Virus record (IMG/VR): IMGVR_UViG_3300032242_000818
Coordinates: 100,718-164,717 of that record
Source: a virus
Direction: 5' to 3' (one strand)
DNA length: 64,000 nt
Shown here: piece after piece, positions 24,864 through 38,378 of the stretch
Layout: every line of letters starts with the position of its first letter
Numbering within the stretch: the first letter of the stretch is position 1
Translations under genes and position numbers: made by a program
The notes under the pieces: model-generated
Seen by the model: only the letters and a program-made list of their open reading frames with translations
Databases searched by the model: none
What the model was told of the DNA's origin: nothing

Positions 24864-27650
24864 TTAGTACGTACCACCATCAATTTGGAAACCATCCAAA
24901 GTTGATGTCGTTGCGCCAGCACCAGTAATGTTGGTACCAACGTAGATTGCTTTAGTTACTGCCAAACCACCAGACATAACAACACCAGCAGTTGTTAAGT
25001 TAGTAGCATCAGTACTATTTGTTAGAGTAACTAGACCAGAAGCAGCAAGAGTTGTACCACTAAAACTAGAAGCAGTAATTGTTTTATTGCTTAATGCTTC
25101 AGTTCCTGCTAAAGTAGCAAGAGTACCACTTGTTGGTAGAGTTACTGAAGTATTACCAGTAACAGCGATTGCAGTGCTAAATGCACCTGTTAAAGATAAT
25201 GAACCAGCAGTAGAAACATTACCACCTAGAGTAATAGTATATGATCCATTATTAACACCAGTACCACCATAAGTTGGTCCAATAATAGTACCTTGCCAAG
25301 TACCAGTACCAATAGTACCTAATGTAGTAATTGAAGTCTGACCAACATATGATGCAGAGATATCAATATTATCAGCGTTAGCAATAATTCTATTTGTAGT
25401 ACCAACTACGTTTAAAGTATTACCAGATTTAGTTAAACCATCACCAGCGATAACAGAACCAGCACCAGAGAACTGAACGAATGTTAAAACAGTTGTATCA
25501 ATTGTTACACTGCCGTCTGTTGTAAGAACATAACCATTGTCTGCACCAATAGTACCTTCTTCAACAAAAGTAAACATTCCTGGAGTAACTTCACCACTTG
25601 GAGAGTTATCAGCATCAGTGGCACGAGTCAATACCCAGTTAGTAGAAGCAGAACCAACAGTAGTAACAGTATAGATACCGTTATTTTGACCAAGTGTTTG
25701 ATCTTTAACTAAAACACGATCGCCAGAAACTAGGACGATACTATCAATAGTAAGAGCAGCTTGGGTTCCAGAGTTAGTAAGTGTTTTACCAGCACCTGTA
25801 CCAGAAGCAGTAGCAGTTAAGTTGGCAGTAGTAGCAACACGAACTGAATCTTTAATATCCAGTGCTTGTTTAACAGCATCAACATAACCTTTATTGGCAG
25901 CATCAGTTGCTTGAGTAGGAGTTGCGACTGAAGTAATACGGAAACTACCAACGTCAACAGTACCAGAACCAGTTGGTGTAAGATTAACACTTTGGTTAGA
26001 GCCACCAGCTGCGAATGTTAACGAACCAGTACCAGTGATAGAACCAGTTGTAGAACCAGTACCACCATAAGCAACACCGATAGTATTACCATTCCAAGTA
26101 GAACCAGAACCAATAGTCTTATTTTGTAATGTTTCAGTACCAGTTAAAGTAGCAAGAGTACCACTTGTTGGTAGTGTTAATGATGTGGTATTAGTAGCAG
26201 TTAATGTTACACCATATGCTCCAGCAGTAGTTAAAGTGCTACCATCTGCTAACGCTAAAGTTGCACTAGTTGCAGGAGCAGTAAACGCTACTTTGTTTAT
26301 AGATGTAGCAGTGGCAACACCAAGAACTGGAGTAACTAATGTTGGACTAGTAGCAAGAACAACTGAACCAGTACCAGTTACAGCTGTAATACCTGTTCCA
26401 TTAATCTGGAACACATTACCTGTTGCAGCAGTATTAAATGTCTTGTTAGTAAATGTATCAGTAGTGGCACGACCAACTAAAGTATCTGTAGAAGTTGGTA
26501 GAGTTAATGTACCACTGTTAACAATAGTTGCAATTACTGGAGAAGTAAGAGTTTTATTTGTTAGAGTATCAGTTGTTGCTTTACCAACTAAAGTATCAGT
26601 TGTAGCTGGTAGTGTTAGAGTACCAGAAGCAGTTGCTGAAGCAGCAAGAGTAGTAGTGCCTGAAGAAGAACCAGAGAATAATGCACCACCAGAACCAATA
26701 GTTGGAGTTGTAAGAGATGGGCTTACTGCAAATACATTAGCACCAGTACCAGTATAAGAGTTGAAACCAGTAATCTCTTGTACCCATGTTTCTGCGCCAG
26801 TCGATGCAACAGTGAATGTTACTTGTGTACCAGCCTGAATAGTAGCAAGAGCACCAGAAGTAGAAGTCTGAATAGTCAGAGCACCAGTACTATTGTTAGT
26901 AAGAATAAATTCTTGACCAACAGTAAGAGTAGCGGTAGAAGGTAACTTAATAGTCTGACTAGTTGAACCAGTAAAATATTGGTTTGCTGAACTAGATGCT
27001 GTTAGAGTAGTAGTTGTTCCACCAGTAGCAGTTGAAGTATAACCACCTGCGCCGATAGAAGAAATTGTAACTGTTTGACCAGATACAGAAGTGGTAATAC
27101 CATTACCACCAGTAAAGGTTAATGTTTGGGATAGTAGAGCAACAGAACCAGTAGTAGCACCACCAGCTGCTAAACTTAAAGTAGCAGCAGAAGCAGCCCA
27201 AGTAGATGTACCACTACCATCAGTAGTTAAAACATAACCATTAGTACCAGCTGATCTTGGTAATGTCCAAGTACCAGCAATCTGAACCATGCCAGTGCCG
27301 TTTGGATTAAGTACTAAGTTACCATTGGTATTAGTTGTGCTTAATGTATTACCAGTTAATTGAGTATTACCAACTAACCATTTGTCAATTGTACCAGTTG
27401 ATGATAGAACTGGAATTGACGATGCGTTTGTAGTTAACGTGCCAGCAGTTGATGCGTCGATTAAACCAGTATAGTAAGTACCACCAATAACATAGTGGTT
27501 TGCTGCATTACCTGCAGTTTCTGAACCGATACCAATGTAAAGTCTATTACCACCTGCGCCAGCGTAGGCTGAATATGCTAATTCACCTGCGCCAAGAGTG
27601 GTTGGATTACCTGCTGTCGATGAACGCTTTATTCTAATTATTGATGCCAT
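24864..27650 (-). CDS. Fibre protein
   Basis: IKRSS..GELAYS N-terminus, TLTLP.TDTLVG repeats, DAANKGYVD/SVRVATT/DRVLVKDQ/NGIY fibre domain, ends DGGTY. Confidence 0.8.
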   Translation of the reverse strand: MASIIRIKRSSTAGNPTTLGAGELAYSAYAGAGGNRLYIGIGSETAGNAANHYVIGGTYYTGLIDASTAGTLTTNASSIPVLSSTGTIDKWLVGNTQLTGNTLSTTNTNGNLVLNPNGTGMVQIAGTWTLPRSAGTNGYVLTTDGSGTSTWAASAATLSLAAGGATTGSVALLSQTLTFTGGNGITTSVSGQTVTISSIGAGGYTSTATGGTTTTLTASSSANQYFTGSTSQTIKLPSTATLTVGQEFILTNNSTGALTIQTSTSGALATIQAGTQVTFTVASTGAETWVQEITGFNSYTGTGANVFAVSPSLTTPTIGSGGALFSGSSSGTTTLAASATASGTLTLPATTDTLVGKATTDTLTNKTLTSPVIATIVNSGTLTLPTSTDTLVGRATTDTFTNKTFNTAATGNVFQINGTGITAVTGTGSVVLATSPTLVTPVLGVATATSINKVAFTAPATSATLALADGSTLTTAGAYGVTLTATNTTSLTLPTSGTLATLTGTETLQNKTIGSGSTWNGNTIGVAYGGTGSTTGSITGTGSLTFAAGGSNQSVNLTPTGSGTVDVGSFRITSVATPTQATDAANKGYVDAVKQALDIKDSVRVATTANLTATASGTGAGKTLTNSGTQAALTIDSIVLVSGDRVLVKDQTLGQNNGIYTVTTVGSASTNWVLTRATDADNSPSGEVTPGMFTFVEEGTIGADNGYVLTTDGSVTIDTTVLTFVQFSGAGSVIAGDGLTKSGNTLNVVGTTNRIIANADNIDISASYVGQTSITTLGTIGTGTWQGTIIGPTYGGTGVNNGSYTITLGGNVSTAGSLSLTGAFSTAIAVTGNTSVTLPTSGTLATLAGTEALSNKTITASSFSGTTLAASGLVTLTNSTDATNLTTAGVVMSGGLAVTKAIYVGTNITGAGATTSTLDGFQIDGGTY

Positions 27651-27664
27651 CTTTTATTCTCCGA

Positions 27665-27916
27665 TTAAAATTCGCCACCTTCCATATTCTGCGCATCTAG
27701 CGTAGTGGAAGCTGTCCATTTATTTGTGCTTGTTTTGTAAACAAGTATTGACCCATTTACTTTACCATTAGTAGTGACATCGACATCGGCGATGTTTGAC
27801 ATAGATTCAACCACAGCTGGTGCAGCTAAATTTGTTTGTGAAAGCGTAAGAACACCTTCTGAAACTGCGACCGATAATGCTTGGTCTGGGGTTACGACTG
27901 CTATTGTATCTGCCAT
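27665..27916 (-). CDS. Small fibre-associated protein
   Basis: IADVD...NGSILVY...KW motif; ends MEGGEF; TAATG coupling to upstream gene. Confidence 0.65.
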   Translation of the reverse strand: MADTIAVVTPDQALSVAVSEGVLTLSQTNLAAPAVVESMSNIADVDVTTNGKVNGSILVYKTSTNKWTASTTLDAQNMEGGEF

Positions 27917-28251
27917 TATATTTGTGTAATTTGTGGGGTTATTGTTACGATACCTTCTACAACTCTGGTTTTTGTTCCAGAAGCAGAGGTAATCTCCACG
28001 TCATATAGCCATCTCCCTGCGGGAATAGCTGAAGAAGCTGAAGCGGATAGTTGGAGTCTCACTTTACCGTTAGCTGCATCATAAACTGATGCTGTAAAGG
28101 CGTAAGCTGTGGATGAACTGTAGGACTTTCTCATCTGAGAAGCCACAGTGTAATTGCTTAAATTCAAAGGTTGTCCGTTGGTAGAACTGACAGTAATTAT
28201 GTTACTGTAATCACTTCCAGCGTCAACGAAAAGATTGCTAATAGTAGCCAT
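27916..28251 (-). CDS. Conserved small virion protein (Ig-like beta fold)
   Basis: LNLSNYTVASQMRKSY, GRWLYDVEI, RVVEGIVTITP. Confidence 0.7.
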   Translation of the reverse strand: MATISNLFVDAGSDYSNIITVSSTNGQPLNLSNYTVASQMRKSYSSSTAYAFTASVYDAANGKVRLQLSASASSAIPAGRWLYDVEITSASGTKTRVVEGIVTITPQITQI

Positions 28252-28284
28252 TGACCCATCCTAAACACTATTCTTATACCTCTT

Positions 28285-28292
28285 TATTTATA
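28285..28292 (-). promoter_or_regulatory. Consensus T4 late promoter TATAAATA
   Basis: Exact match upstream of 27916..28251. Confidence 0.75.
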
Positions 28293-28318
28293 AGATACGG
28301 AAGTTGGGTTTTGCAGAA

Positions 28319-29704
28319 CTAAATTGCAGCAATCGGAATAATTTTTTTAGGTTTACGAGTCTTTTCTGGTTTACCATTGACCCACCAAAAGATATCTTTA
28401 CGATCTTCTCGTTGGGGTCCATTGATATAAATTGGAATATGGCCAGTCATAAGTTCAATTCCATTTGCAAAAACTGTAATATTATCACTAAATGCATTAT
28501 TACAAGAAGCATCCCATAAAGGACCAGTTAAAAACATGCACGCACCTTTGCATATATGTACTACAGGACAAGTTGGACAATCTTTACGATCGCTCCAATG
28601 TGTAGCTGTTTTAACCTCTATATCTTTTAAATTACTAACATGGCCAATATGATGAGATAAACCAGAGGGGTTTACTGAAACTGTACTTACATTCTGACAA
28701 GTTAAAACATTACCATTTAAATCAACTGCAATATTTTCAGACTTATCCATACCACACTTTTGAGCAACAGTTTCTAACCTTCTTCCTGTTGCAATAGTTT
28801 CAACAAAATTCTTAATTTTTTGATTTATAGTTATAAATTTGGATGCTTTATAATCTCGAATTTCAAGATAAGAAGAATTTCTAAATCTAACATCTTCTTC
28901 TTCATCTAACAATGAGTTAGCCAAACCACCATCATCATAAGCATCAACAAAACTACCCTCACCGATAACAAGAAATTGTAAATATTCTTCACCAAGTTCT
29001 TTAATTACTATGTTCTCAAAAAACTTTTGAATATTTTCCCTACTAATATTTTTAGAGTTTATCATTGCATTTAGGGATATCTTATTCTTTGGAGCAAGAC
29101 GTTTAAATAAGTCTATGATAGCATCTTTGGATTTTGGGTCATCAAATGGATCTGGACCGCGAACAGGCTGTCCTGGACCATCATGTGATATTGCAACAGT
29201 AAAATTATACTTTTCTAAAAATTCATTTTTTTCAGAATCCAAAATACTACCATTTGTAATAACTAAATTATTGCAGTTTGGATATTTTTTGTTTATTGCT
29301 TCAACCAATGGTTTCATTGTTTTCCAGTAAACAAAAGGCTCACCACCCCAATATTCAAATGTTACTTCGGAACCCAAACCATCAGCACCACCCTCGAACC
29401 AAGTAGACATATTATCTACAAATGGTTGAACATCGTCAGGGTTGGTAGAATCTGCTGTTGGAACAAATCTCTGAGAACAATAGTCACACTCAAAATTACA
29501 TGAGAGACCTAATTGTATTTTTACAACTCGTAAGTTTTTCTTGCCAATTTCAATTTTTACTTGATTAGTCACATCTCTTGTTTCTGAATCTGAAATAACA
29601 TTTTTGCCATCTGGCCATGTTAATTTGCTAGAAACAGAATCGTAATTTACAAATGTTTTTTCTTGAGTAACTGGATGAACTAAATCAATTTTGAATAAAG
29701 CCAT
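28319..29704 (-). CDS. Radical SAM enzyme with C-terminal SPASM domain (anSME/AslB / peptide-maturase type)
   Basis: CNFECDYC (CX3CX2C), GGEP, ITNG, ISHDG; SPASM cysteines KCG...LTC and CPTCPVVHICKGAC...SC. Confidence 0.92.
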   Translation of the reverse strand: MALFKIDLVHPVTQEKTFVNYDSVSSKLTWPDGKNVISDSETRDVTNQVKIEIGKKNLRVVKIQLGLSCNFECDYCSQRFVPTADSTNPDDVQPFVDNMSTWFEGGADGLGSEVTFEYWGGEPFVYWKTMKPLVEAINKKYPNCNNLVITNGSILDSEKNEFLEKYNFTVAISHDGPGQPVRGPDPFDDPKSKDAIIDLFKRLAPKNKISLNAMINSKNISRENIQKFFENIVIKELGEEYLQFLVIGEGSFVDAYDDGGLANSLLDEEEDVRFRNSSYLEIRDYKASKFITINQKIKNFVETIATGRRLETVAQKCGMDKSENIAVDLNGNVLTCQNVSTVSVNPSGLSHHIGHVSNLKDIEVKTATHWSDRKDCPTCPVVHICKGACMFLTGPLWDASCNNAFSDNITVFANGIELMTGHIPIYINGPQREDRKDIFWWVNGKPEKTRKPKKIIPIAAI

Positions 29705-29721
29705 ATTATATCCTATAATGT

Positions 29722-29753
29722 AAAAAAGTCTGGTGGATTTCTCCTACCAGACT
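29722..29753 (-). terminator. Rho-independent terminator upstream of the radical SAM gene
   Basis: AGTCTGGT(A)GGA-GAAA-TCCACCAGACT followed by a U-run. Confidence 0.75.
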
Positions 29754-29759
29754 ATTTAT
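29753..29759 (-). promoter_or_regulatory. Late promoter for the radical SAM gene
   Basis: ATAAATA abutting the terminator 5' arm. Confidence 0.55.
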
Positions 29760-29771
29760 TATGTAAAATTA

Positions 29772-30557
29772 TTAAGCCAATACTTTAGAGAATGTATTAA
29801 CATTAGTAAATAATTTGTGCCCAGCTTTAACTTGTACAGTAGTACCAGATGTTAAACTATCTGTTAAGATATTAAAAGATCCAATACCATTAGTTAAAGA
29901 AACTACATTTCTATCTAGAATTCCAGTAACTTGAGATATATAGATTTTATCTAAAGATGTGTCTGTTGTAGAAACATTAACTAAAATTGTATCACCAGGA
30001 GATACAGTTGTTTGTGTAGTAGAAAGAGTTACTGGAGCAAAAATAGTTTTCCATTTAGTAAATCCTGTTGGAGCAGTACCTACATTAGTAACAACTGTTG
30101 TTTTATGACCAATGTCATTTCCGTTAGAAGGATCTGGCGATTTAACAATATATGAGAATGTTGTAAAATTACCAGATTCACTATCAACAAAAATTCTAAA
30201 AGGTATTTCTGAATGACCATCACCAGAAAAGAATATATTAGAAGATTTATTAAGTTTTGTTTCATCTAAAATAGAAACTAAATCATTTTTTGTAATAGAG
30301 CGTTCATCAGAAGAAGAACCCAACAGTTCTTTGTCTTCAAATCCAAAAATACTTTGTGAACAAAATCTATTTTGTGATTGTAATACATCTAAATCTAATG
30401 AGATATTACATAAAATTTTATTATTATCTTCAACATGAATAAATTGATATTTTAAATTTGTTTCAGTAATATTAAAATTATGTGTAAACGATGCTTCGCT
30501 GGATGTTATTCTTGAAAAAATTTCAGCAGGAGAATCTGTATTGTAAAAATTAGTCAT
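29772..30557 (-). CDS. Hypothetical protein with probable C-terminal Ig-like domain, between the CNCNCNC fibre and the radical SAM gene
   Basis: Intact ORF with AGGA RBS; beta-rich C-terminus (TVSPGDTILVNV...VSLTNGIGSF...VQVKAG). Confidence 0.7.
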   Translation of the reverse strand: MTNFYNTDSPAEIFSRITSSEASFTHNFNITETNLKYQFIHVEDNNKILCNISLDLDVLQSQNRFCSQSIFGFEDKELLGSSSDERSITKNDLVSILDETKLNKSSNIFFSGDGHSEIPFRIFVDSESGNFTTFSYIVKSPDPSNGNDIGHKTTVVTNVGTAPTGFTKWKTIFAPVTLSTTQTTVSPGDTILVNVSTTDTSLDKIYISQVTGILDRNVVSLTNGIGSFNILTDSLTSGTTVQVKAGHKLFTNVNTFSKVLA

Positions 30558-30569
30558 TATTATTTCCTA

Positions 30570-31682
30570 TTAGCAGTTACAGTTACAGTTACAAACAGCA
30601 CCAACCTGACATGAACCGTAGTTACCATGCTTGGCCATATAGACTGAAGTAACACGTGGTGGGTAGACGTTACCATGGCCACCAGATCCTTGGCCAGTAC
30701 CATCCAAGAAACCACCATAATTACCTAAGTTGTTACCATATTGTGACAAGAAATATGGCCATCCGCCTTGAGCAGAACCAGCAATACTTGAATATGATAC
30801 ACTTGAAACAATGACCGCACCAGTAGTACCTTGAACCGATGTAACAGGAACAGAAACAATAACGGCACCAGTGTTACCTTGAACCGATGTAACAGCAGCA
30901 GAAATAGTTGGGTTACCAGCAACACCATCGCCGTTAGTAACAGAGATACCAGCACCAGCAGTAATAGTACGACCAGCAGCAGTACCTGCACCAGTCAAAG
31001 CAACCATACCAGTAGAAACACCAGAAACTGCAGATAATTGGGCATTATATGCTTGTACGTTAGTTCCAATAACCACACCAAGCGTAGAACGAGCAGTAGA
31101 TGCATCAGCATCCGCCATATGACCACGCATATAAGTAGAAGATGTATAGACTGAAGCAGTTCCTAAACCAGTAAAATATGGAGTAGCATTCGCTGCAGAA
31201 GTTAAACCAGCAAGAGCATTGCCAGAAGCGGTATATGCTTGCACATCAGTGCCGATTGCTAAACCAAGAGCAGTACGAGCACCAGAAGCAGTCGTAGCAC
31301 CAGTGCCACCACCTGCAATAAGAACTGTATAGTTCAAACTTGCGGCGATAGAAGCAGTACCAGTTAAAGCAGCAGTAATAGTACCAGCAGAAAAGTTACC
31401 AGATGCATCACGAGCAACGATAGTATTTGCAGTATTTGTAGAAGCAGCAGAGCGAGCACCAGAGTTAAACGTCAGAGTATCTGAGTTTAAACCAGAAGCA
31501 GCTGCATATCCAGTAACAGTATTGAGTTTTGCTAATACGTCTGCTGCAGTATAACTCGCAGCGGTTTGGCCGAGAGCAATCTGAGTAGAAATATTTGAGA
31601 AGTTTTGATCGACTTCAGCATTGGTAAGAGGGCTACCTTTGGTAGATCTTAGCGTAATCGATGGAGCAGTTATAGATGCCAT
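30570..31682 (-). CDS. Fibre protein with Cys/Asn-repeat C-terminus ([13 protein letters not shown])
   Basis: [18 protein letters not shown] anchor, [35 protein letters not shown] fibre repeats. Confidence 0.8.
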
Positions 31683-31702
31683 TTAAGTTTCCTTAGTCAG
31701 TC

Positions 31703-31930
31703 TTATTTAGTAGATACCAGCTGTTGAAGTAGCTGTTTTATATCTGATAATTCATTCTTTATGTTATTTATGTCTTCTGTATGTTGAGAAATTTCAGCTT
31801 CTCTGGCTTCAGTTTTTTTCTTCTGAAAGAGGTATTCTTCATACTCAGTCCTATTATTATTTAGGATTGCGCCAGTAGCTATATCTCGAACTAAACTGGC
31901 GTGTCCCTCAACTTTCAAAAAATCATTCAT
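31703..31930 (-). CDS. Small conserved coiled-coil protein
   Basis: KVEGHASLVRD..TGAILN plus C-terminal heptads; likely start MNDF. Confidence 0.7.
   Translation of the reverse strand: MNDFLKVEGHASLVRDIATGAILNNNRTEYEEYLFQKKKTEAREAEISQHTEDINNIKNELSDIKQLLQQLVSTK
31704..31710 (-). promoter_or_regulatory. Late promoter for the CNCNCNC fibre cassette
   Basis: CTAAATA about 20 nt upstream of 31682 ATG with AAGGA RBS. Confidence 0.6.
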
Positions 31931-31931
31931 A

Positions 31932-34900
31932 TTATGGACAAGCAATTAAACGGAAATCCTTAATAATTGGTACGGCTGCTGTATTAGTAGAAGTCATAAC
32001 CAATTTTACCTGGATCGTGTCAAACGAAGGCATACCTGTTAATGTATATGTAATATCACTAAAAGTAGGGTTTCCATTATCTACCTTAGTAACAATACCA
32101 TCAGGTGTCATTAAGATATATTTAGCTGGTGTTAAATTTGATGCATCACCAGTACAAGATTTATAGTATACTGCAACATTGGCTTCTGCAGGGATATTTG
32201 CGCTTAACATAACACGCATATAAGTCGATGCATTTGCAAATTTAACAGGAGTAGTTACATATTTACTGACAGAACTGCTTCCAACTGGAGCAATCTCATC
32301 AGCAAACAGAATTCTAGTAGTAACAGTTGTACCAGAAACTGCAGCCTCACCAGTAAAGGTTGTATTTAAAGTAAGAGTTCCAGTAGTTCCATTATCCGTA
32401 AATCCAGTAACTAAGAAAGTTCCATTATTTCCAGAAGTGGTTGCACCAGAGATAGTTACATATTTACCGATACCGATACCAGCCATGGCAGTTCTAACTG
32501 CAGAAACTGTAGAAGTTATAGTTCCGCCAGAAACAAAAGTAAATGCACCAGTAGAATATGAGAAGGCAGTAGATAAATCTAATGGATCCACGTTGGTATT
32601 AGACTGAGTTGGGGAGTTCAATTTGTTACTAACTGCGATTAACTTTGTACGAGTAGTATCAATAACAGGAGAAACTGCATCATTTGTGGTTGATATTAGG
32701 GCAGCAAAAGTTAATGATTTATTACCAGAAAGTAAAACATTCTCATTGCTCTCAGAACAAATCATTCTTGGAGAATAGAAAATATTATTCTGATTTCTTA
32801 GCGCAGGAGAGAACCCTGAATCAATTACGTTTGGAGTTTGACTGCCATCAATTGATTTACCAGAAGTAGTTTTGATAGAGAATGTAGATGTTGTATCAGA
32901 GAAATTCTGCATCTGAACAACTGGATTTACTACATCAAACTGGACATTTCTACTTGCCTTTACTAATGTACCACCAGTATATCCAGAAGTTGTTGCGCTA
33001 GTTGTAGAACTAAATGTATAACAATTCATATCTACATTACTGATAATATGATTAGTATATATTTCAACAGCAGGAATACCATTAATTGGAGCAACATATT
33101 GGAAAGCAGCACCAGTAACAGCAACACCAGCATTAGAACCTAGTGTTAAAGAAGTATCGCTTGCAATAGCAGAAACAGAACCGATTAAAACATCCTGTGA
33201 ATTATACAAAGCAGAACCGACTGCTAGTTCAGTAGTAAATGCAGTACCTACACCAGTAACAGTTGCGCTACTAGTTGAAGCAGTAATAGTTCCAGTTCCT
33301 GGATCATTAGCATTAACTGCAGAGATATCTACAGTTGAACCAGTTGGCATGCCATGATCATAATGCCACACACGAACTAAATTAGATCCAGAAATAGTTT
33401 CGAATGGATTGTTATCTAATGTATCATATGGTAAAACATCATTAACAAATTCAACATCACCAACAACTGAAGTATTAAACTTTGCACGATTAATAGTGAA
33501 CTTAATATCAGCATTATCATCAGCAGTCCAAGTAGATGCGTTCTGTGATTTAAACATTACACCAGCATATGGTTGCTCAGAAATAGTTCTTCCAGATCCA
33601 GGGATTTGATCGCCCATATAAGATACCCAAATATTGTAACCATTTGAGTCAGACTGGAGGACAAAACAATATTCAGTTGCGTCTTGTAAATATACTGGAC
33701 TCTCAAAAGTAAATCTAGTTGGAGTATCATAACTATGTCTTTGAGAATTATCTGGCATAGCAACATAATTAGCAGATAAGTTTACTTGTTCTGGACGTAA
33801 AGTTACTACGCTAAATGGTAGAATAGTCTTACCTGGAGTACCATTTACCATCTCACGAACTTGTAAAGTAACTGGCATTGAACTATCTTTTGTAGCAAAG
33901 AAAATATCAATAGAAGTTATAAATGCTCCACCCTTTTGTTGAACTAAGAAAGATTGAGCAAGTGGATCATACCAAACGCCACCACTACCAAGTGTTTTAG
34001 TAGAATCCTGCCAAACAGTTTGATTACCAGAAACTTGTTCAGTAACGATTTGTCCATTTCGAACGGCATTAACTGTTTTCTGAGTACTATTTAAAATACC
34101 AGTTGCTTCATAAGTAGCAATACCACGTGAAGTATAATCTCCAGCGTAAGTTGATACATCTTTTAATGCAAATTCTCGTTTACCAGTTCTAAAACGTACT
34201 GAATCAGTTTGTGGGATATTGTATAGAAACTCAACATCACCACCAGCAGTAGTTACTAATGTTGTTGGCGTAGTTACAGAAACTACAACACCTTGAGCAC
34301 TACTAATAGAACCAGAGATTGTATCATCTTTAGCAAAAGAACCTTTGATATTCACAAGACTTAAACAATAAGCATTATTAGCATCAATATAAACATTAAC
34401 GACAACAGCAGAAGCAGTTCCTGCTCCATTACTAATAACATCACCTGCATTAAGACACATCTGAGCATCACCAAGAATTCTTCGTTTTAATTCAGATGCT
34501 TGTCCGCCTACGTTTGTTTTATAATCAAAAGTACCAGATGATGGTGTGTATATCATTTTAACTGCAGGAGTACAGTAAGATGAAACATCTGCCCCATCAA
34601 AGTAAGGATAGAATCTAGTTGATGGTTTCAACTTATGTGCTTGAACAAGAATATTTCTTGAACGAATATACGGGATAACTGCAGTAGAAACTGTAACATC
34701 TGAGACTGTTTCATAATCAGTTTTAAGAGCAAGTTTAGTTTCAATACCACTTCTTGATTGACCAACTTGAGTAGCAGTAGTTTGAGTTACTGTATAACTA
34801 CCAGCATAAATTCCCCAACCACCATTTAGACTAAAGTTTCCACCAGTAATACCCCTTGCTGCAGCATAACCAGCAGCAGCACCATTATACTGTACAGGAC

Positions 34901-37900
34901 CAGCAATACTTACTCCAGTCCATTCAGTTTGCCATGCGTTCCAAACTGTTCCAAGCGCACCTGCTTTTTGTGCGAGATTTAAAATAGTACTGTAATTACC
35001 TTCAACCTGTTGGATAATATCTGGAAGACGATTTACTTCAAACCAATCATCAGAAGGAGGATTTAATTGAACATCACCAATAAACGTAAAGATAGCAAAT
35101 GGATTAATATTCTCCAAACGAGAAGCATACTGCTGAGTTATTAATGGAGTAGTTGTATAAGGTAATGTAATAATATCACCAGTCAACTGATAATTGGCAG
35201 ATGTTCTGGCAGAATTATTAGAATATTTTTCTAATAAATTAACATTATACTGAGAATAAAATGGACGTAATTGATTTTGCTCCATATCAATTGCACATAG
35301 ATAATCTTTTGATTTACTATTTGCTAATTTGCTTCCACTAAAGTTATCAACAACGAAACCATTTTTCATACGATCTAGACCACTAGAATCAGTAATCTTT
35401 AATGCTTGAGTTTCTTGTTCTAATAATGATAAAGAAGTATAGTATTCAAGATTGTTAATTCTAGATTCTAGTCTTCCGATATCACGCATAGTATATCGCT
35501 TATTATCTACTTTTCTTGCGGATATATTAGTAGCATCTGCAGTAAATGTATATGCAGTTAAGTCGATTGTATAAAGCACCATACCCAAATCTGGATCTGA
35601 TGGATATCCAGGTGTTAATGAAGAAACACCAGTTATATCAAAAATATTACCATTAATATCTACTGCAATTTTATCTTTTCTTGGTAGATAGTAACTATAA
35701 TCAGCAGTAGCTGCTTGTCCACGTTTTGGTATAGCAGAAATAATTGAACCAGTTCCTACAAAGTTTTTAACAGTACCAGAAGATTTATTAGCAACACGTG
35801 GACGGAAATCCAATGAATCTCTTAAAGTTGGTGATATAGTTTTATAATCAATGTTACTATAAGAGTTAACATCGAAATAATCACCAGCGCCATGTTCAAA
35901 ATATTGATATGTTACTTTAAATGGATTTGATGGAGCAGCAAAAGATGGGTTTAATGTTAGAGATGCCCAATCATAGTAAGTAGTTTTCTGACCATTATCT
36001 ACTGTAAATCTATCAGAGATATCAACAGTATATGCACTAGAAGCTGGAGTAGAACCCCATGCTGCACCTGGAGCCATCATAATACTTACAATTTTAAATA
36101 AGTCAGGTTTGTCCAAATAAACAACTGCTGCTTGTGCAGCAATTTGAGTATTAAATACCTCAGAAGTATTTGTAAGAGTTTTAGTCTTTTCAAATCCTGA
36201 ACCATTTCTAATAACTACTGCAATAACAGAAATAGAATGACCAGACTGACCACTAGGAACAACAATAGTACAAGTTGAACCAGATGGAGTAATAGAATCT
36301 GGCACAATAATAGCACCACCTGATGTTGCATCATTATCAATAACAGTATAATTAGTTTGCTCAGATGCTGGAGCAAAAGTACCCGATGTACTTAATGTAA
36401 TAGATGTTCCAGTTGCAGTTTGAGTAAATTTTTGGTAACAGTAGTATGTAGTATTATTAGTTCCACCTGTACCAGCAGTTCTCATTGATCGAATTGCGTT
36501 ATATGGTAATGGGAATATTAATGATGTTTTATCTGCTTCTAAAATTTGAGTAGTACATCTAGCAATAGTTGCACCAGTTACTGTAATTGAAGTATCAACG
36601 GTAATAGTTCCTTGGGCAGAAACTGTGGCGACTTTACGATAAGAACCACCAATTCCACCAATTAAAACTAAATCATTTACTTTTAAATCAGTTAAGAAAG
36701 AAGTTCCAGTGCCAGTAATAGTTGTGCCTGAAGCAGTAACTGAACCAATCAATTGTGTAACTACTGGGCTGATATCAGCAGTAAAGTTTAAGTTTGAATC
36801 TGAAGGAACAGTGTACGCTAAACATTTAACATCAGTATTAAATGCATATCCTGAATTCATCTGAACATCAAATAAACCAAGTTTATAAACTGCCGAATAA
36901 CCTACTGGTAGACCAGTATGCCATTCCATATAACGAGCACGAGCATAACCAACAATAGTACCTTGAGGCGACCCACGATTTGAAGAACCAGTAATTGCAT
37001 TATAAAGTGTAACTTGTGCCAGTTCTTCTACTTTTGGCAAATTATTTACATTGGTAACCAATACATAATTACCAACAGTAGTATCAACTACTGAAGCAGT
37101 CGCTTGAACATAAGTACGTGCTTTATCAACAGGAATATATGTTACCGCAGTTTTTTCAATTTCATATCCATGAACATATGCTTTACCTGCTTCAATACCA
37201 ACAGCAACCTGAGATTCATTACCATTTAAAAATATACCGCGATTGTATGGTGGCGCAGTATCATACTGCCAATTAACACCAGTTGCTCCTGGACCATCAT
37301 ATGCAGAAGAAGTAGTATGAGTTGGAGGTGTTGTAACTGAAGTTGCGCTATTTAAAGCAGTGTATGTGATACCATTATATGTAACGATATCGCCAATTAG
37401 ATAACCAGTATTTTGAAGCCAAGTTCCACGATTATTATTGCGATGTTCACGAATATCAATATCGAAACCACGAACAGAATAATCTCCAGATTCATCATAT
37501 GTACGACGAGCCATCTCATCAGCAAGTAAAGAATACTGTGTTTTATCAACAATAGTTTTAATTGAACCATTAGTAACACGAATTAACTCTACAAAGTTAG
37601 AATCAGAAATTGAATCAATTCCAAGTTTAGTTAATGTTAAATCAATGTAATAACGATGTGCACCTGGAGCAGCATAGTTATATGAGTTTTGAGCATTATC
37701 TAAAAGAGTTTCATCTTGTTCTGGAGTAATAATTTCTTCAGAGACATTTAGACCAATACGATATGTTGGAGTAGTTGTATATTTGTCAAGAACAATAGTT
37801 TGAGTATCAACCAAACAGAAATGACCATTTATATAATAAACACCCTGATTAACTGTTGCAAGAGAACCTTTACCAACAGATCCAGCTCCACTTTGAATTT

Positions 37901-38378
37901 GAACTGAATATACTGAATCGCTAGTTATTAATACTTCATTAGCAGCAAAAGTTTTAGTTGTAGTATTTGTGCCAGATACAGTATAATTTAAATATAATGT
38001 TGTTGGATCACTGGCTTCTGCGCTTTGGCATAAAGTAACTGTTGCTTTTACACCAGTTGTTTGACCAATTAGAGTTTTACCTTTTAAATTCTTTAAAAAT
38101 GTTTCAACTGCTACACTATTATACAAAGATTGTAATTTTACATAATCTGCACCAGCTCCAGGCTGAGTTATAGTTTGAACTGATGCTTGTCCAGGGATAA
38201 CCATAGCACCCTGTTTGAATATAGCATCACCATGACGTTTAATTTGATTCTGCAGAATACTCTGCATTTGAGTTAGTTCGCGAGCCTGAACCGCAAAAGA
38301 TGGGCGATAAAGAATACGATAAAACTTTTTGGCTTCATCGTAATCATCATTATACGGTTCGGTATTGAAATCTAGCAT
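31932..38378 (-). CDS. Very large virion/baseplate protein (DUF4815-like)
   Basis: FNTEPYNDDY...RPSFAVQARELTQMQSILQNQI, APGAHR, ARRTYDESG, RYTMRDIG, DPLAQSF. Confidence 0.85.
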   Translation of the reverse strand: MLDFNTEPYNDDYDEAKKFYRILYRPSFAVQARELTQMQSILQNQIKRHGDAIFKQGAMVIPGQASVQTITQPGAGADYVKLQSLYNSVAVETFLKNLKGKTLIGQTTGVKATVTLCQSAEASDPTTLYLNYTVSGTNTTTKTFAANEVLITSDSVYSVQIQSGAGSVGKGSLATVNQGVYYINGHFCLVDTQTIVLDKYTTTPTYRIGLNVSEEIITPEQDETLLDNAQNSYNYAAPGAHRYYIDLTLTKLGIDSISDSNFVELIRVTNGSIKTIVDKTQYSLLADEMARRTYDESGDYSVRGFDIDIREHRNNNRGTWLQNTGYLIGDIVTYNGITYTALNSATSVTTPPTHTTSSAYDGPGATGVNWQYDTAPPYNRGIFLNGNESQVAVGIEAGKAYVHGYEIEKTAVTYIPVDKARTYVQATASVVDTTVGNYVLVTNVNNLPKVEELAQVTLYNAITGSSNRGSPQGTIVGYARARYMEWHTGLPVGYSAVYKLGLFDVQMNSGYAFNTDVKCLAYTVPSDSNLNFTADISPVVTQLIGSVTASGTTITGTGTSFLTDLKVNDLVLIGGIGGSYRKVATVSAQGTITVDTSITVTGATIARCTTQILEADKTSLIFPLPYNAIRSMRTAGTGGTNNTTYYCYQKFTQTATGTSITLSTSGTFAPASEQTNYTVIDNDATSGGAIIVPDSITPSGSTCTIVVPSGQSGHSISVIAVVIRNGSGFEKTKTLTNTSEVFNTQIAAQAAVVYLDKPDLFKIVSIMMAPGAAWGSTPASSAYTVDISDRFTVDNGQKTTYYDWASLTLNPSFAAPSNPFKVTYQYFEHGAGDYFDVNSYSNIDYKTISPTLRDSLDFRPRVANKSSGTVKNFVGTGSIISAIPKRGQAATADYSYYLPRKDKIAVDINGNIFDITGVSSLTPGYPSDPDLGMVLYTIDLTAYTFTADATNISARKVDNKRYTMRDIGRLESRINNLEYYTSLSLLEQETQALKITDSSGLDRMKNGFVVDNFSGSKLANSKSKDYLCAIDMEQNQLRPFYSQYNVNLLEKYSNNSARTSANYQLTGDIITLPYTTTPLITQQYASRLENINPFAIFTFIGDVQLNPPSDDWFEVNRLPDIIQQVEGNYSTILNLAQKAGALGTVWNAWQTEWTGVSIAGPVQYNGAAAGYAAARGITGGNFSLNGGWGIYAGSYTVTQTTATQVGQSRSGIETKLALKTDYETVSDVTVSTAVIPYIRSRNILVQAHKLKPSTRFYPYFDGADVSSYCTPAVKMIYTPSSGTFDYKTNVGGQASELKRRILGDAQMCLNAGDVISNGAGTASAVVVNVYIDANNAYCLSLVNIKGSFAKDDTISGSISSAQGVVVSVTTPTTLVTTAGGDVEFLYNIPQTDSVRFRTGKREFALKDVSTYAGDYTSRGIATYEATGILNSTQKTVNAVRNGQIVTEQVSGNQTVWQDSTKTLGSGGVWYDPLAQSFLVQQKGGAFITSIDIFFATKDSSMPVTLQVREMVNGTPGKTILPFSVVTLRPEQVNLSANYVAMPDNSQRHSYDTPTRFTFESPVYLQDATEYCFVLQSDSNGYNIWVSYMGDQIPGSGRTISEQPYAGVMFKSQNASTWTADDNADIKFTINRAKFNTSVVGDVEFVNDVLPYDTLDNNPFETISGSNLVRVWHYDHGMPTGSTVDISAVNANDPGTGTITASTSSATVTGVGTAFTTELAVGSALYNSQDVLIGSVSAIASDTSLTLGSNAGVAVTGAAFQYVAPINGIPAVEIYTNHIISNVDMNCYTFSSTTSATTSGYTGGTLVKASRNVQFDVVNPVVQMQNFSDTTSTFSIKTTSGKSIDGSQTPNVIDSGFSPALRNQNNIFYSPRMICSESNENVLLSGNKSLTFAALISTTNDAVSPVIDTTRTKLIAVSNKLNSPTQSNTNVDPLDLSTAFSYSTGAFTFVSGGTITSTVSAVRTAMAGIGIGKYVTISGATTSGNNGTFLVTGFTDNGTTGTLTLNTTFTGEAAVSGTTVTTRILFADEIAPVGSSSVSKYVTTPVKFANASTYMRVMLSANIPAEANVAVYYKSCTGDASNLTPAKYILMTPDGIVTKVDNGNPTFSDITYTLTGMPSFDTIQVKLVMTSTNTAAVPIIKDFRLIACP

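Follow-up and report, generated by a model that had tools for sequence, protein, structure and literature searches.

Why should a phage carry a radical S-adenosylmethionine (SAM) enzyme in the midst of its tail fibre genes? The question is raised by a 64,000-nucleotide stretch of viral DNA (hereafter the window; positions 100,718 to 164,717 of the IMG/VR record IMGVR_UViG_3300032242_000818), in which the gene for a 461-amino acid (aa) radical SAM/SPASM enzyme follows the genes for a 370-aa tail fibre and a 261-aa protein. The source record is a complete 164.7-kb virus genome with terminal repeats, and the phage, a freshwater one, is T4-like as judged from the neighbouring genes. A prediction made earlier from the nucleotide sequence had proposed that these three consecutive genes form a fibre maturation system, in which the phage modifies the tip of its own fibre much as if the core of a ribosomally synthesised and post-translationally modified peptide (RiPP) had been fused to a structural protein. 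The three open reading frames (ORFs) have the predicted sizes and all lie on the minus strand, and the PHROG matches of the 370-aa protein and of the 80-aa and 111-aa proteins encoded nearby agree with the predicted location inside a structural fibre block. The explanation that in our view best accounts for the locus, and to which we assign a probability of about 0.55, is that the phage encodes the maturation of its own virion fibre, the enzyme modifying the Cys tail of the fibre and most likely forming thioethers there.

The five Cys residues of the fibre (358, 364, 366, 368 and 370) all fall within its last 13 residues, and none is found elsewhere in the protein. The last 66 residues hold 15 Gly, 8 Asn and 6 Tyr, so that the Gly/Asn/aromatic-rich end described in the original prediction is also recovered. 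The window has 59 ORFs that reach 100 aa or more, and CxCxC occurs in the 370-aa fibre only; in the whole genome the fibre tail is the only place with a CNCNC run. Homologues of the fibre were found at 32 unique T4-like loci, and every one of them ends in an Asn-Cys run. When the last 75 residues were aligned across the T4-like relatives, N70, C71, C73 and C75 were the only invariant positions; the stretch of about 50 aa between a conserved junction and the tail varies in both length and sequence, while the tail is constant. The picture that the alignment gives is of a receptor-binding tip that diversifies while the functional tail joined to it is strictly conserved. The prediction had been staked on conservation of the tail, and the tail is conserved in the relatives. 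Some relatives have extra His-rich stretches immediately before it. At the nucleotide level, the hexanucleotide repeat (TGTAAC)n occupies window positions 30573-30593 on the minus strand, and the number of NC units among close relatives ranges from three to five, differences of the kind that in-frame slippage would give.

A much stronger argument for a functional connection comes from the distribution of the enzyme and the tail. By tblastn, enzymes 43-50% identical to that of the window were found in the Achromobacter phages JWF and 2-1, which are siphoviruses, and in Ralstonia phage RSP15. Each of these phages has, one or two genes upstream of the enzyme, a fibre-like gene that carries a similar Cys motif. 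No similarity was detectable between the window fibre and RSP15 gp048 or JWF gp028, and since these unrelated fibres all carry the motif beside an enzyme of 43-50% identity, the pairing is independent of fibre ancestry. Two collections of loci were assembled, one of 80 loci from a pattern and tblastn scan of IMG/VR, and one of about 30 family loci from genomes and metagenome-assembled genomes, nearly all of Burkholderiales (among them Limnohabitans, Polynucleobacter, Comamonadaceae, Burkholderia paludis and Castellaniella). Seventy loci had at least 4 kb of upstream and at least 1.2 kb of downstream sequence and were scored for a partner. In 67 of them an ORF on the same strand has CxCxC together with two or more NC units; the other three (RSP15, L021 and L029) have tails of the form NCQC or NCRNCNC, which brings the Asn-Cys tail to 70/70. 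In the converse direction, a scan of IMG/VR for gene ends of the form NCNCNC-stop, which sampled TAA stops only and so leaves TAG- and TGA-ending tails outside the sample, gave 63 in-frame cases. The enzyme was found in the fetched locus for 40; of the remainder, 22 were short of flank and one had enough flank but no enzyme, that is 40/41 where the question could be asked. The co-occurrence of homologous enzymes with a Cys-repeat fibre that the original prediction called for is thus seen in both directions, and the pairing, now met in well over 100 phages and prophages, is far beyond chance.

The family to which the enzyme belongs is large. A profile search of 1.84 billion representatives gave 537 clusters (50% identity) at E <=1e-30, and even a locus from the weak end of the matches listed (L250, 273 bits) has, ahead of the enzyme, a baseplate gene, a gene for a 163-aa protein with an NC/DC run at its end and one for a homologue of the 261-aa protein. 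Two distant members, L251 and L252, stood outside the partner scoring, being on short contigs or in a bacterial RiPP-like context. The enzyme tree divides into three main clades according to the type of partner, which is a fibre of T4-like phages, a fibre of prophages or a small protein rich in Cys. Because related enzymes share partner labels, the match of clade to partner, on this tree, is one of long-term fidelity of the pairing and not of independent co-evolution.

The partners themselves, for which we compared 93 unique proteins, have a common anatomy. Cys is preceded by Asn in 677 of 1003 instances against a background Asn frequency of 9%, and the residue between the Cys of the longest run is Asn in 183 cases, Ala in 67 and Asp in 27. 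The longest CxC run ends six residues or fewer from the C-terminus in 74/93 partners, and most of the exceptions have about 150-235 more residues past the run. In JWF, 2-1, a B. paludis prophage and L097, the additional sequence is a Hint domain (Pfam Hom_end_hint, 47.5 bits, above cutoff), which starts with Cys and stands directly after the NC run. Hint domains self-cleave at their own first Cys, and for this reason the mature fibre of the Hint type would also end in its NC run. The Hint-bearing fibres (L001 5712-7154; L003 5670-7121; L104 3778-5307; L097 3235-4365) lack a C-extein, and the JWF fibre has a Pfam Shufflon_N match of 29.9 bits, that is to a shufflon PilV-like N-terminal region. 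Other partners, of a different clade and about 300 aa in length, are encoded directly downstream of the enzyme (L069 5206-6108, L071, L076, L077, L080 and others) and consist of an NC-rich domain, a segment of the form NCNCSKIIC and a domain of about 170 aa, unassigned, with a hydrophobic end, which may be another removable or anchoring module. Neither Pfam nor NCBIfam gave a match for the small Cys-rich partners, the downstream partners of about 300 aa, the 240-aa accessory protein of JWF, or RSP15 gp046 and gp047. In two loci (L028 1868-2651; L050 1799-2608) three tandem paralogues of 81-87 aa, each ending NCNC(A/N)CNC, come immediately after a fibre with an S74-type, chaperone-like C-terminal end, and between the paralogues and the enzyme lie two paralogues of the 261-aa family and three 2-oxoglutarate (2OG)-Fe(II) oxygenases.

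Such oxygenases belong to a set of optional genes. In several cassettes the partner is separated from the enzyme by one to three genes for 2OG-Fe(II) oxygenases, and many T4-like relatives carry a movable three-gene insert (L006 7389-9712; L038 3666-5990) that encodes a 96-98-aa protein, a DctP-type solute-binding protein without a signal peptide and a protein weakly like Asn synthase. The insert sits after the enzyme in some loci and before it in others. The window has neither the oxygenases nor the insert. Optional tailoring genes of this sort are typical of peptide-maturation clusters, and they argue against a tail that does nothing but bind metal.

The enzyme has the composition that was predicted for it, namely a CX3CX2C motif for the SAM cluster (C69/C73/C76, invariant in 50 sequences) and a full set of SPASM Cys (C317-x13-G-x4-C336; C376-x2-C379-x5-C385-x3-C389; C401), all of which are invariant; TIGR04085, the SPASM model, scores 33.2 bits against a cutoff of 27. 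Fifty family members share exactly ten conserved Cys, three of the SAM cluster and seven of SPASM. In Pfam, Radical_SAM stays below its cutoff (27.3 against 29.5 bits) and Fer4_12 passes narrowly (22.8 against 22). The best match is to PHROG 1802, phage radical SAM proteins with no assigned function (E 8.9e-62, 210.7 bits, residues 49-408), with which the JWF and 2-1 enzymes are likewise annotated. All NCBIfam equivalogs, whose cutoffs for the best three run from 340 to 450, score far lower: anSME 62.9 (TIGR03942, cutoff 349), DynA 62.4, PapB 62.3 (NF047865, cutoff 340) and SCIFF 33.8 (TIGR03974, cutoff 425). The QhpD model (TIGR03906), whose cutoff is 453, gives 38.9 bits with a match confined to the core, and the neighbours of our enzyme are fibre genes. 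By profile score, then, the enzyme belongs to no curated family and fits PHROG 1802 alone.

The AlphaFold2 (AF2) model of the enzyme (mean confidence, pLDDT, 90.6) is closest in the PDB to CteB, with a Z score of 23.3 and a root-mean-square deviation (rmsd) of about 4.2 over 348-364 residues aligned from residue 1, followed by ChlB (Z 20.8), anSME (19.6) and TigE (18.6); the core of the model superposes on CteB, anSME and viperin with Z of 13-23. In a profile search of PDB sequences the matches were TigE (1e-17) and CteB (1e-11), both over the core only, and anSME (5e-9) over the full length. The spacing of the SPASM Cys matches that of CteB C344/C362/C413 and C400/C403/C409/C432, which predicts an auxiliary cluster 1 held by three Cys and an auxiliary cluster 2 held by four. 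The ligands of CteB are known, PapB and Tte1186 share the same 3+4 scheme, and contact of a substrate selenocysteine with auxiliary cluster 1 has been shown (PMC10177961). At its N-terminus the model has strands at residues 3-9, 16-22 and 27-29 and no helices before the core; clade members that align only from residue 56 nonetheless have an N-terminal stretch of their own. When a complex was predicted from the enzyme, the 75 C-terminal residues of the fibre, SAM and three 4Fe-4S clusters, it scored 0.01 and weighs neither way.

Taken with the pairing, the Cys tail is probably the substrate of the enzyme, and that the product is a thioether we put at about even odds. In the mechanism that we propose, the substrate of the 461-aa enzyme would be the Cys/Asn tail at the very C-terminus of the 370-aa fibre, which would be modified probably before or during fibre assembly in the reducing cytoplasm of the host. 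If the enzyme works like CteB and PapB, the open iron of auxiliary cluster 1 (ligands C317, C336 and C389) would be bound by a Cys of the tail, and the 5'-deoxyadenosyl radical would then take a hydrogen atom from the acceptor residue; the beta-strand just ahead of the tail may dock on the three-strand N-terminal sheet of the enzyme. The products would be ranthionine- or sactionine-type thioethers that join Cys sulfur to a carbon of a nearby Asn, Asp or Ala, and the tip would gain covalent, redox-insensitive staples at a place where disulfides cannot serve inside the cell. Thus, of the proposal that the phage modifies its own fibre tip, the RiPP-like pairing stands, on two-way co-occurrence in unrelated phage types, and the Cys-Asn or Cys-Asp thioether is suggested by the fold and the Cys pattern. 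Extended to the family, the idea would be that at least 537 clusters of phage radical SAM/SPASM enzymes thioether-staple fibre tips and small tip proteins at (N/A/D)-C tails, with lineage-specific extras such as Hint autoprocessing, 2OG oxygenases and ligase-like enzymes, which we regard as roughly a toss-up.

Several points weigh against this assignment. The window enzyme scores far under all curated thioether-synthase cutoffs (for PapB, 62 against 340 bits). Its model shows no full RiPP recognition element (RRE), the sole characterised enzyme that aligns with it full-length by sequence is anSME, which is an oxidase, and in the structural comparison CteB leads ChlB and anSME by about three Z units, owing in part to the N-terminal region. 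The residue between the Cys can be Ala, Val or Arg, and because it varies, the strict rule of a beta-thioether from Cys to Asn or Asp, as in NxxcB and PapB, fails in places. Finally, the Cys ladder could instead bind metal.

The alternative closest to our explanation keeps the tail as substrate and changes the chemistry, which would then be the formation of a formylglycine-type aldehyde as by anSME, a C-C crosslink, an epimerisation or some other radical reaction. We consider this unlikely, but not lightly to be dismissed, since anSME is the top NCBIfam match (though level with DynA and PapB) and the only solved enzyme that is sequence-aligned over both core and SPASM. It also targets proteins and has no RRE, much as the window enzyme appears to do, and ChlB and TigE, which make a cyclophane and a cyclopropyl product, are close in structure as well. 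What tells against another chemistry is, first, the Cys-ligand pattern. anSME ligates both auxiliary clusters fully with an eight-Cys SPASM domain. Eight is also the number in the canonical SPASM motif (PMC13692751), whereas the window enzyme has seven, in the 3+4 arrangement of CteB, PapB and Tte1186. The partner proteins are moreover without the C-x-(P/A)-x-R sulfatase motif, and the feature of the substrate that is conserved is Cys itself, the hallmark of thioether systems.

Two further explanations give the Cys tail or the enzyme a different role. The enzyme might crosslink between chains, either the three fibre chains at the tip or the tail to the 261-aa protein as the true distal adhesin. 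The fibre is expected to be trimeric, with its three tails converging at the tip, and the 261-aa family goes with fibre-type partners and has an adhesin-like immunoglobulin (Ig) domain; yet the small-protein clade and the JWF-type loci do without the 261-aa family, and known SPASM thioether synthases act intrachain on flexible peptides, and we hold interchain linkage to be improbable. Less probable still, and to our mind very doubtful, is that the tail is a metal-binding or disulfide ladder on the trimer axis, with the enzyme acting elsewhere or loading a metal or cluster. The tip of T4 gp37, with its His-x-His iron sites, provides a comparison for such a ladder. In an alternating CxC run every thiol would point to one face of the strand, CxC runs are similar to metallothionein motifs, and the His-rich stretches that precede the tail in some relatives would fit as well. 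A ladder of metal or disulfides, however, leaves unexplained both the near-obligate two-way linkage to a SPASM enzyme across unrelated phages and the oxygenase and ligase-like genes of the cassettes. It leaves unexplained, too, that the Asn-Cys partner is the only non-enzyme element that the loci share; they contain no alternative conserved candidate substrate.

Maturation of the fibre tail by thioethers would have precedents among known systems, and differences from each. CteB/CteA (SCIFF) and PapB/PapA are likewise radical SAM enzymes with SPASM domains, with three Cys on cluster 1 and four on cluster 2, and their Cys-rich substrates are encoded beside them. In contrast to the window enzyme, whose model has a three-strand remnant at that place, they have an RRE, a winged helix of about 85 aa; their substrate is a short secreted peptide and not the tail of a 370-aa, phage-encoded virion fibre, and the motif here is one of (N/A/D)-C repeats, not CX3D or SCIFF, with scores far below the family cutoffs. 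PapB has been found to modify the C-terminus in a leader-independent manner (PMC12715619). Thioethers are also put on whole proteins by the SPASM enzymes QhpD (on QhpC) and CrpC (on CrpA) (PMC13692751), and these resemble the locus in that the target of the SPASM radical SAM enzyme is a Cys-rich region in a neighbouring protein that is not a RiPP. They recognise their substrates, one a subunit of a dehydrogenase and the other a repeat protein of archaea, by means of a leader and an RRE, unlike the viral structural protein proposed here with its site at the extreme C-terminus.

The pair NxxcB/NxxcA is a Cys-Asn beta-thioether system. Compared by motif only, Asn and Cys recur in both, and NCNC formally contains N-x-x-C; the conserved residue here, however, stands directly before Cys and can be Ala or Asp, to which the N-x-x-C rule is ill fitted. 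With anSME the likenesses are a protein substrate, the apparent want of an RRE, the full-length alignment and the structural match given above, and the differences are the score far below cutoff, seven and not eight SPASM Cys, the lack of a sulfatase motif and the many target Cys of the present tails. Literature searches on NCNCNC, on JWF, and on phage radical SAM together with tail fibre, thioether, RiPP or SPASM turned up no description of the system, in agreement with the original prediction that no phage system of this kind had been described. The 2026 paper on CrpC does not mention phages (PMC13692751). In a paper on cyanophage S-SCSM2R, an unrelated 'radical SAM maturase' is named as an antibiotic gene.

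Most of the post-translational chemistry known from phage virions consists of proteolysis, of glycosylation and of isopeptide or chainmail links. If our explanation holds, radical crosslinks that an enzyme installs at a receptor-binding tip would add a new class to these, and RiPP-type radical chemistry would be routine in the virion assembly of phages of freshwater and soil Burkholderiales. It would explain a rigid, covalently braced tip in phages that assemble in a reducing cytoplasm, and would define a large, unannotated enzyme family whose present labels are 'radical SAM domain protein' or, wrongly, 'sulfatase maturase'. RiPP enzymology would gain a leader-poor maturase that is directed to the C-terminus and has a very simple repeat as its substrate, and in host-range engineering, fibre-tip swaps made without the tail or the enzyme may fail. 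The cultured phages JWF and 2-1 of Achromobacter and RSP15 of Ralstonia make the system directly testable.

The third gene of the proposed system has a less general place than had been predicted for it. The AF2 model of the 261-aa protein (pLDDT 91.8) consists of two beta domains, of which residues 174-261 match intimin D0-D1 (6tpl_B) with a Z of 10.5 and an rmsd of 2.3 over 85 aligned residues; on the model, this C-terminal domain is Ig-like, of the intimin/Big_1 type. Pfam gave sub-threshold matches only (HYDIN-type Ig at 17.3 bits for the 261-aa protein, Big_1 at 23.2 bits for the homologue in L028). Over the whole length the only fold matches were uncharacterised phage proteins, those of the RSP15 and RP12 types among them; a Foldseek search of the PDB with the whole model gave generic tandem-Ig structures at low template-modelling scores and left residues 1-170, which were never queried alone, unmatched. 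A family trait is a C-terminal strand resembling K-A-G-F-K-Y-F. By profile, the family is present in 66/114 loci, in varying positions and sometimes duplicated. Neither the small-protein clade nor the JWF-type loci have it, and in the latter the middle gene is a different one that encodes a helical protein of 240 aa without similarity to the 261-aa protein. The 261-aa protein is thus common, but no universal third component of the system. The protein looks, from its model, like a beta-sandwich/Ig structural or assembly protein and not like an enzyme or an RRE, and we propose that it would serve as a non-enzymatic partner of fibre-type substrates, either as an assembly factor or as a tip subunit, outside the catalytic machinery.

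The coordinates of the features are collected in the table. On the minus strand the order is the 2148-aa structural protein, the 80-aa protein, the fibre, the 261-aa protein, the radical SAM enzyme, the 111-aa protein, an 83-aa protein and two long fibres of 928 aa and 853 aa. Homologues of the 80-aa protein adjoin the fibre, directly upstream, in T4-like loci. A megablast search of window positions 27000-33000 against the phage collection returned zero matches. The sequencing runs listed for the stretch are DNA metagenomes only, one of them probably its source. In T4-like relatives the 111-aa gene comes after the radical SAM gene or after the optional 2.4-kb insert; it was considered as a core part of the system and rejected, having no similarity to the genes that follow the enzyme in JWF and 2-1. 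The 2148-aa protein has a sub-threshold CBM_5_12 carbohydrate-binding match near residue 320.

Table. Window coordinates of the fibre-tip locus and its neighbours
Feature	Position	Strand	Remarks
2148-aa structural protein	31932-38378	-	DUF4815 domain, 193.9 bits
80-aa coiled-coil virion structural protein	31703..31945	-	phrog_473, E 1.5e-21
370-aa tail fibre, candidate substrate	30570..31682	-	phrog_697 and phrog_24210 (tail fibre/structural)
Hypervariable C-terminal tip of the fibre, ~66 aa	30573..30770	-	between conserved LSQ(F/Y)xNNLGNYG junction and tail
Cys tail, last 13 residues, proposed modification site	30573..30611	-	encoded partly by (TGTAAC)n repeat
261-aa accessory protein, two beta-sandwich domains	29772..30557	-	AF2 model, Ig-like C-terminal match
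Intergenic region between 261-aa and radical SAM genes	29705..29771	-	AATAAATA at 29753-29760, hairpin at 29727-29753, T6, then AGGA and ATG
461-aa radical SAM/SPASM enzyme, proposed maturase	28319..29704	-	phrog_1802, 10 invariant Cys
111-aa protein, first of next fibre module	27916..28251	-	phrog_1084 / phrog_3304 (fibre-assembly family)

The prediction had also placed late-promoter motifs before both the fibre and the enzyme, and this held for the enzyme, where ATAAATA lies 49 nt upstream of the start. For the fibre the motif is weak, the nearest copy lying 83 nt upstream and within the 80-aa gene. The exact TATAAATA occurs before the 111-aa gene only. The hairpin between the 261-aa and radical SAM genes has a free energy of -16.8 kcal/mol (z -4.9), and from its layout the intergenic region would be a terminator after the structural genes, a late promoter for the enzyme, or both; the hairpin could lower expression of the enzyme relative to that of the structural genes. 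Across the window ATAAATA is under-represented (17 observed against about 29 expected), with 14/17 copies on the coding (minus) strand and several just before gene starts (28285, 29753 and 38404), a distribution that is consistent with T4-type late promoters.

Related clusters of other kinds were met at the edges of the family. In Ralstonia phage RP12 (L249; NC_041911 81049-96029) a cluster without Cys has three radical SAM genes together with genes for a virion structural protein, a protein of 125 aa rich in His, Tyr and Trp, and one of 295 aa that matches the 261-aa model in fold. One of the three radical SAM enzymes shares 24% identity with that of the window and retains the N-terminal F-x-YDN motif. 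From this cluster, the same enzyme-substrate logic may serve other crosslink chemistries. A distant member on a Logan contig (L252 2536-4444, 296 bits) lies in an apparent bacterial RiPP cluster, with a PqqD-like protein of 105 aa, a possible 64-aa precursor that ends in GGPCY, and further radical SAM genes as neighbours.

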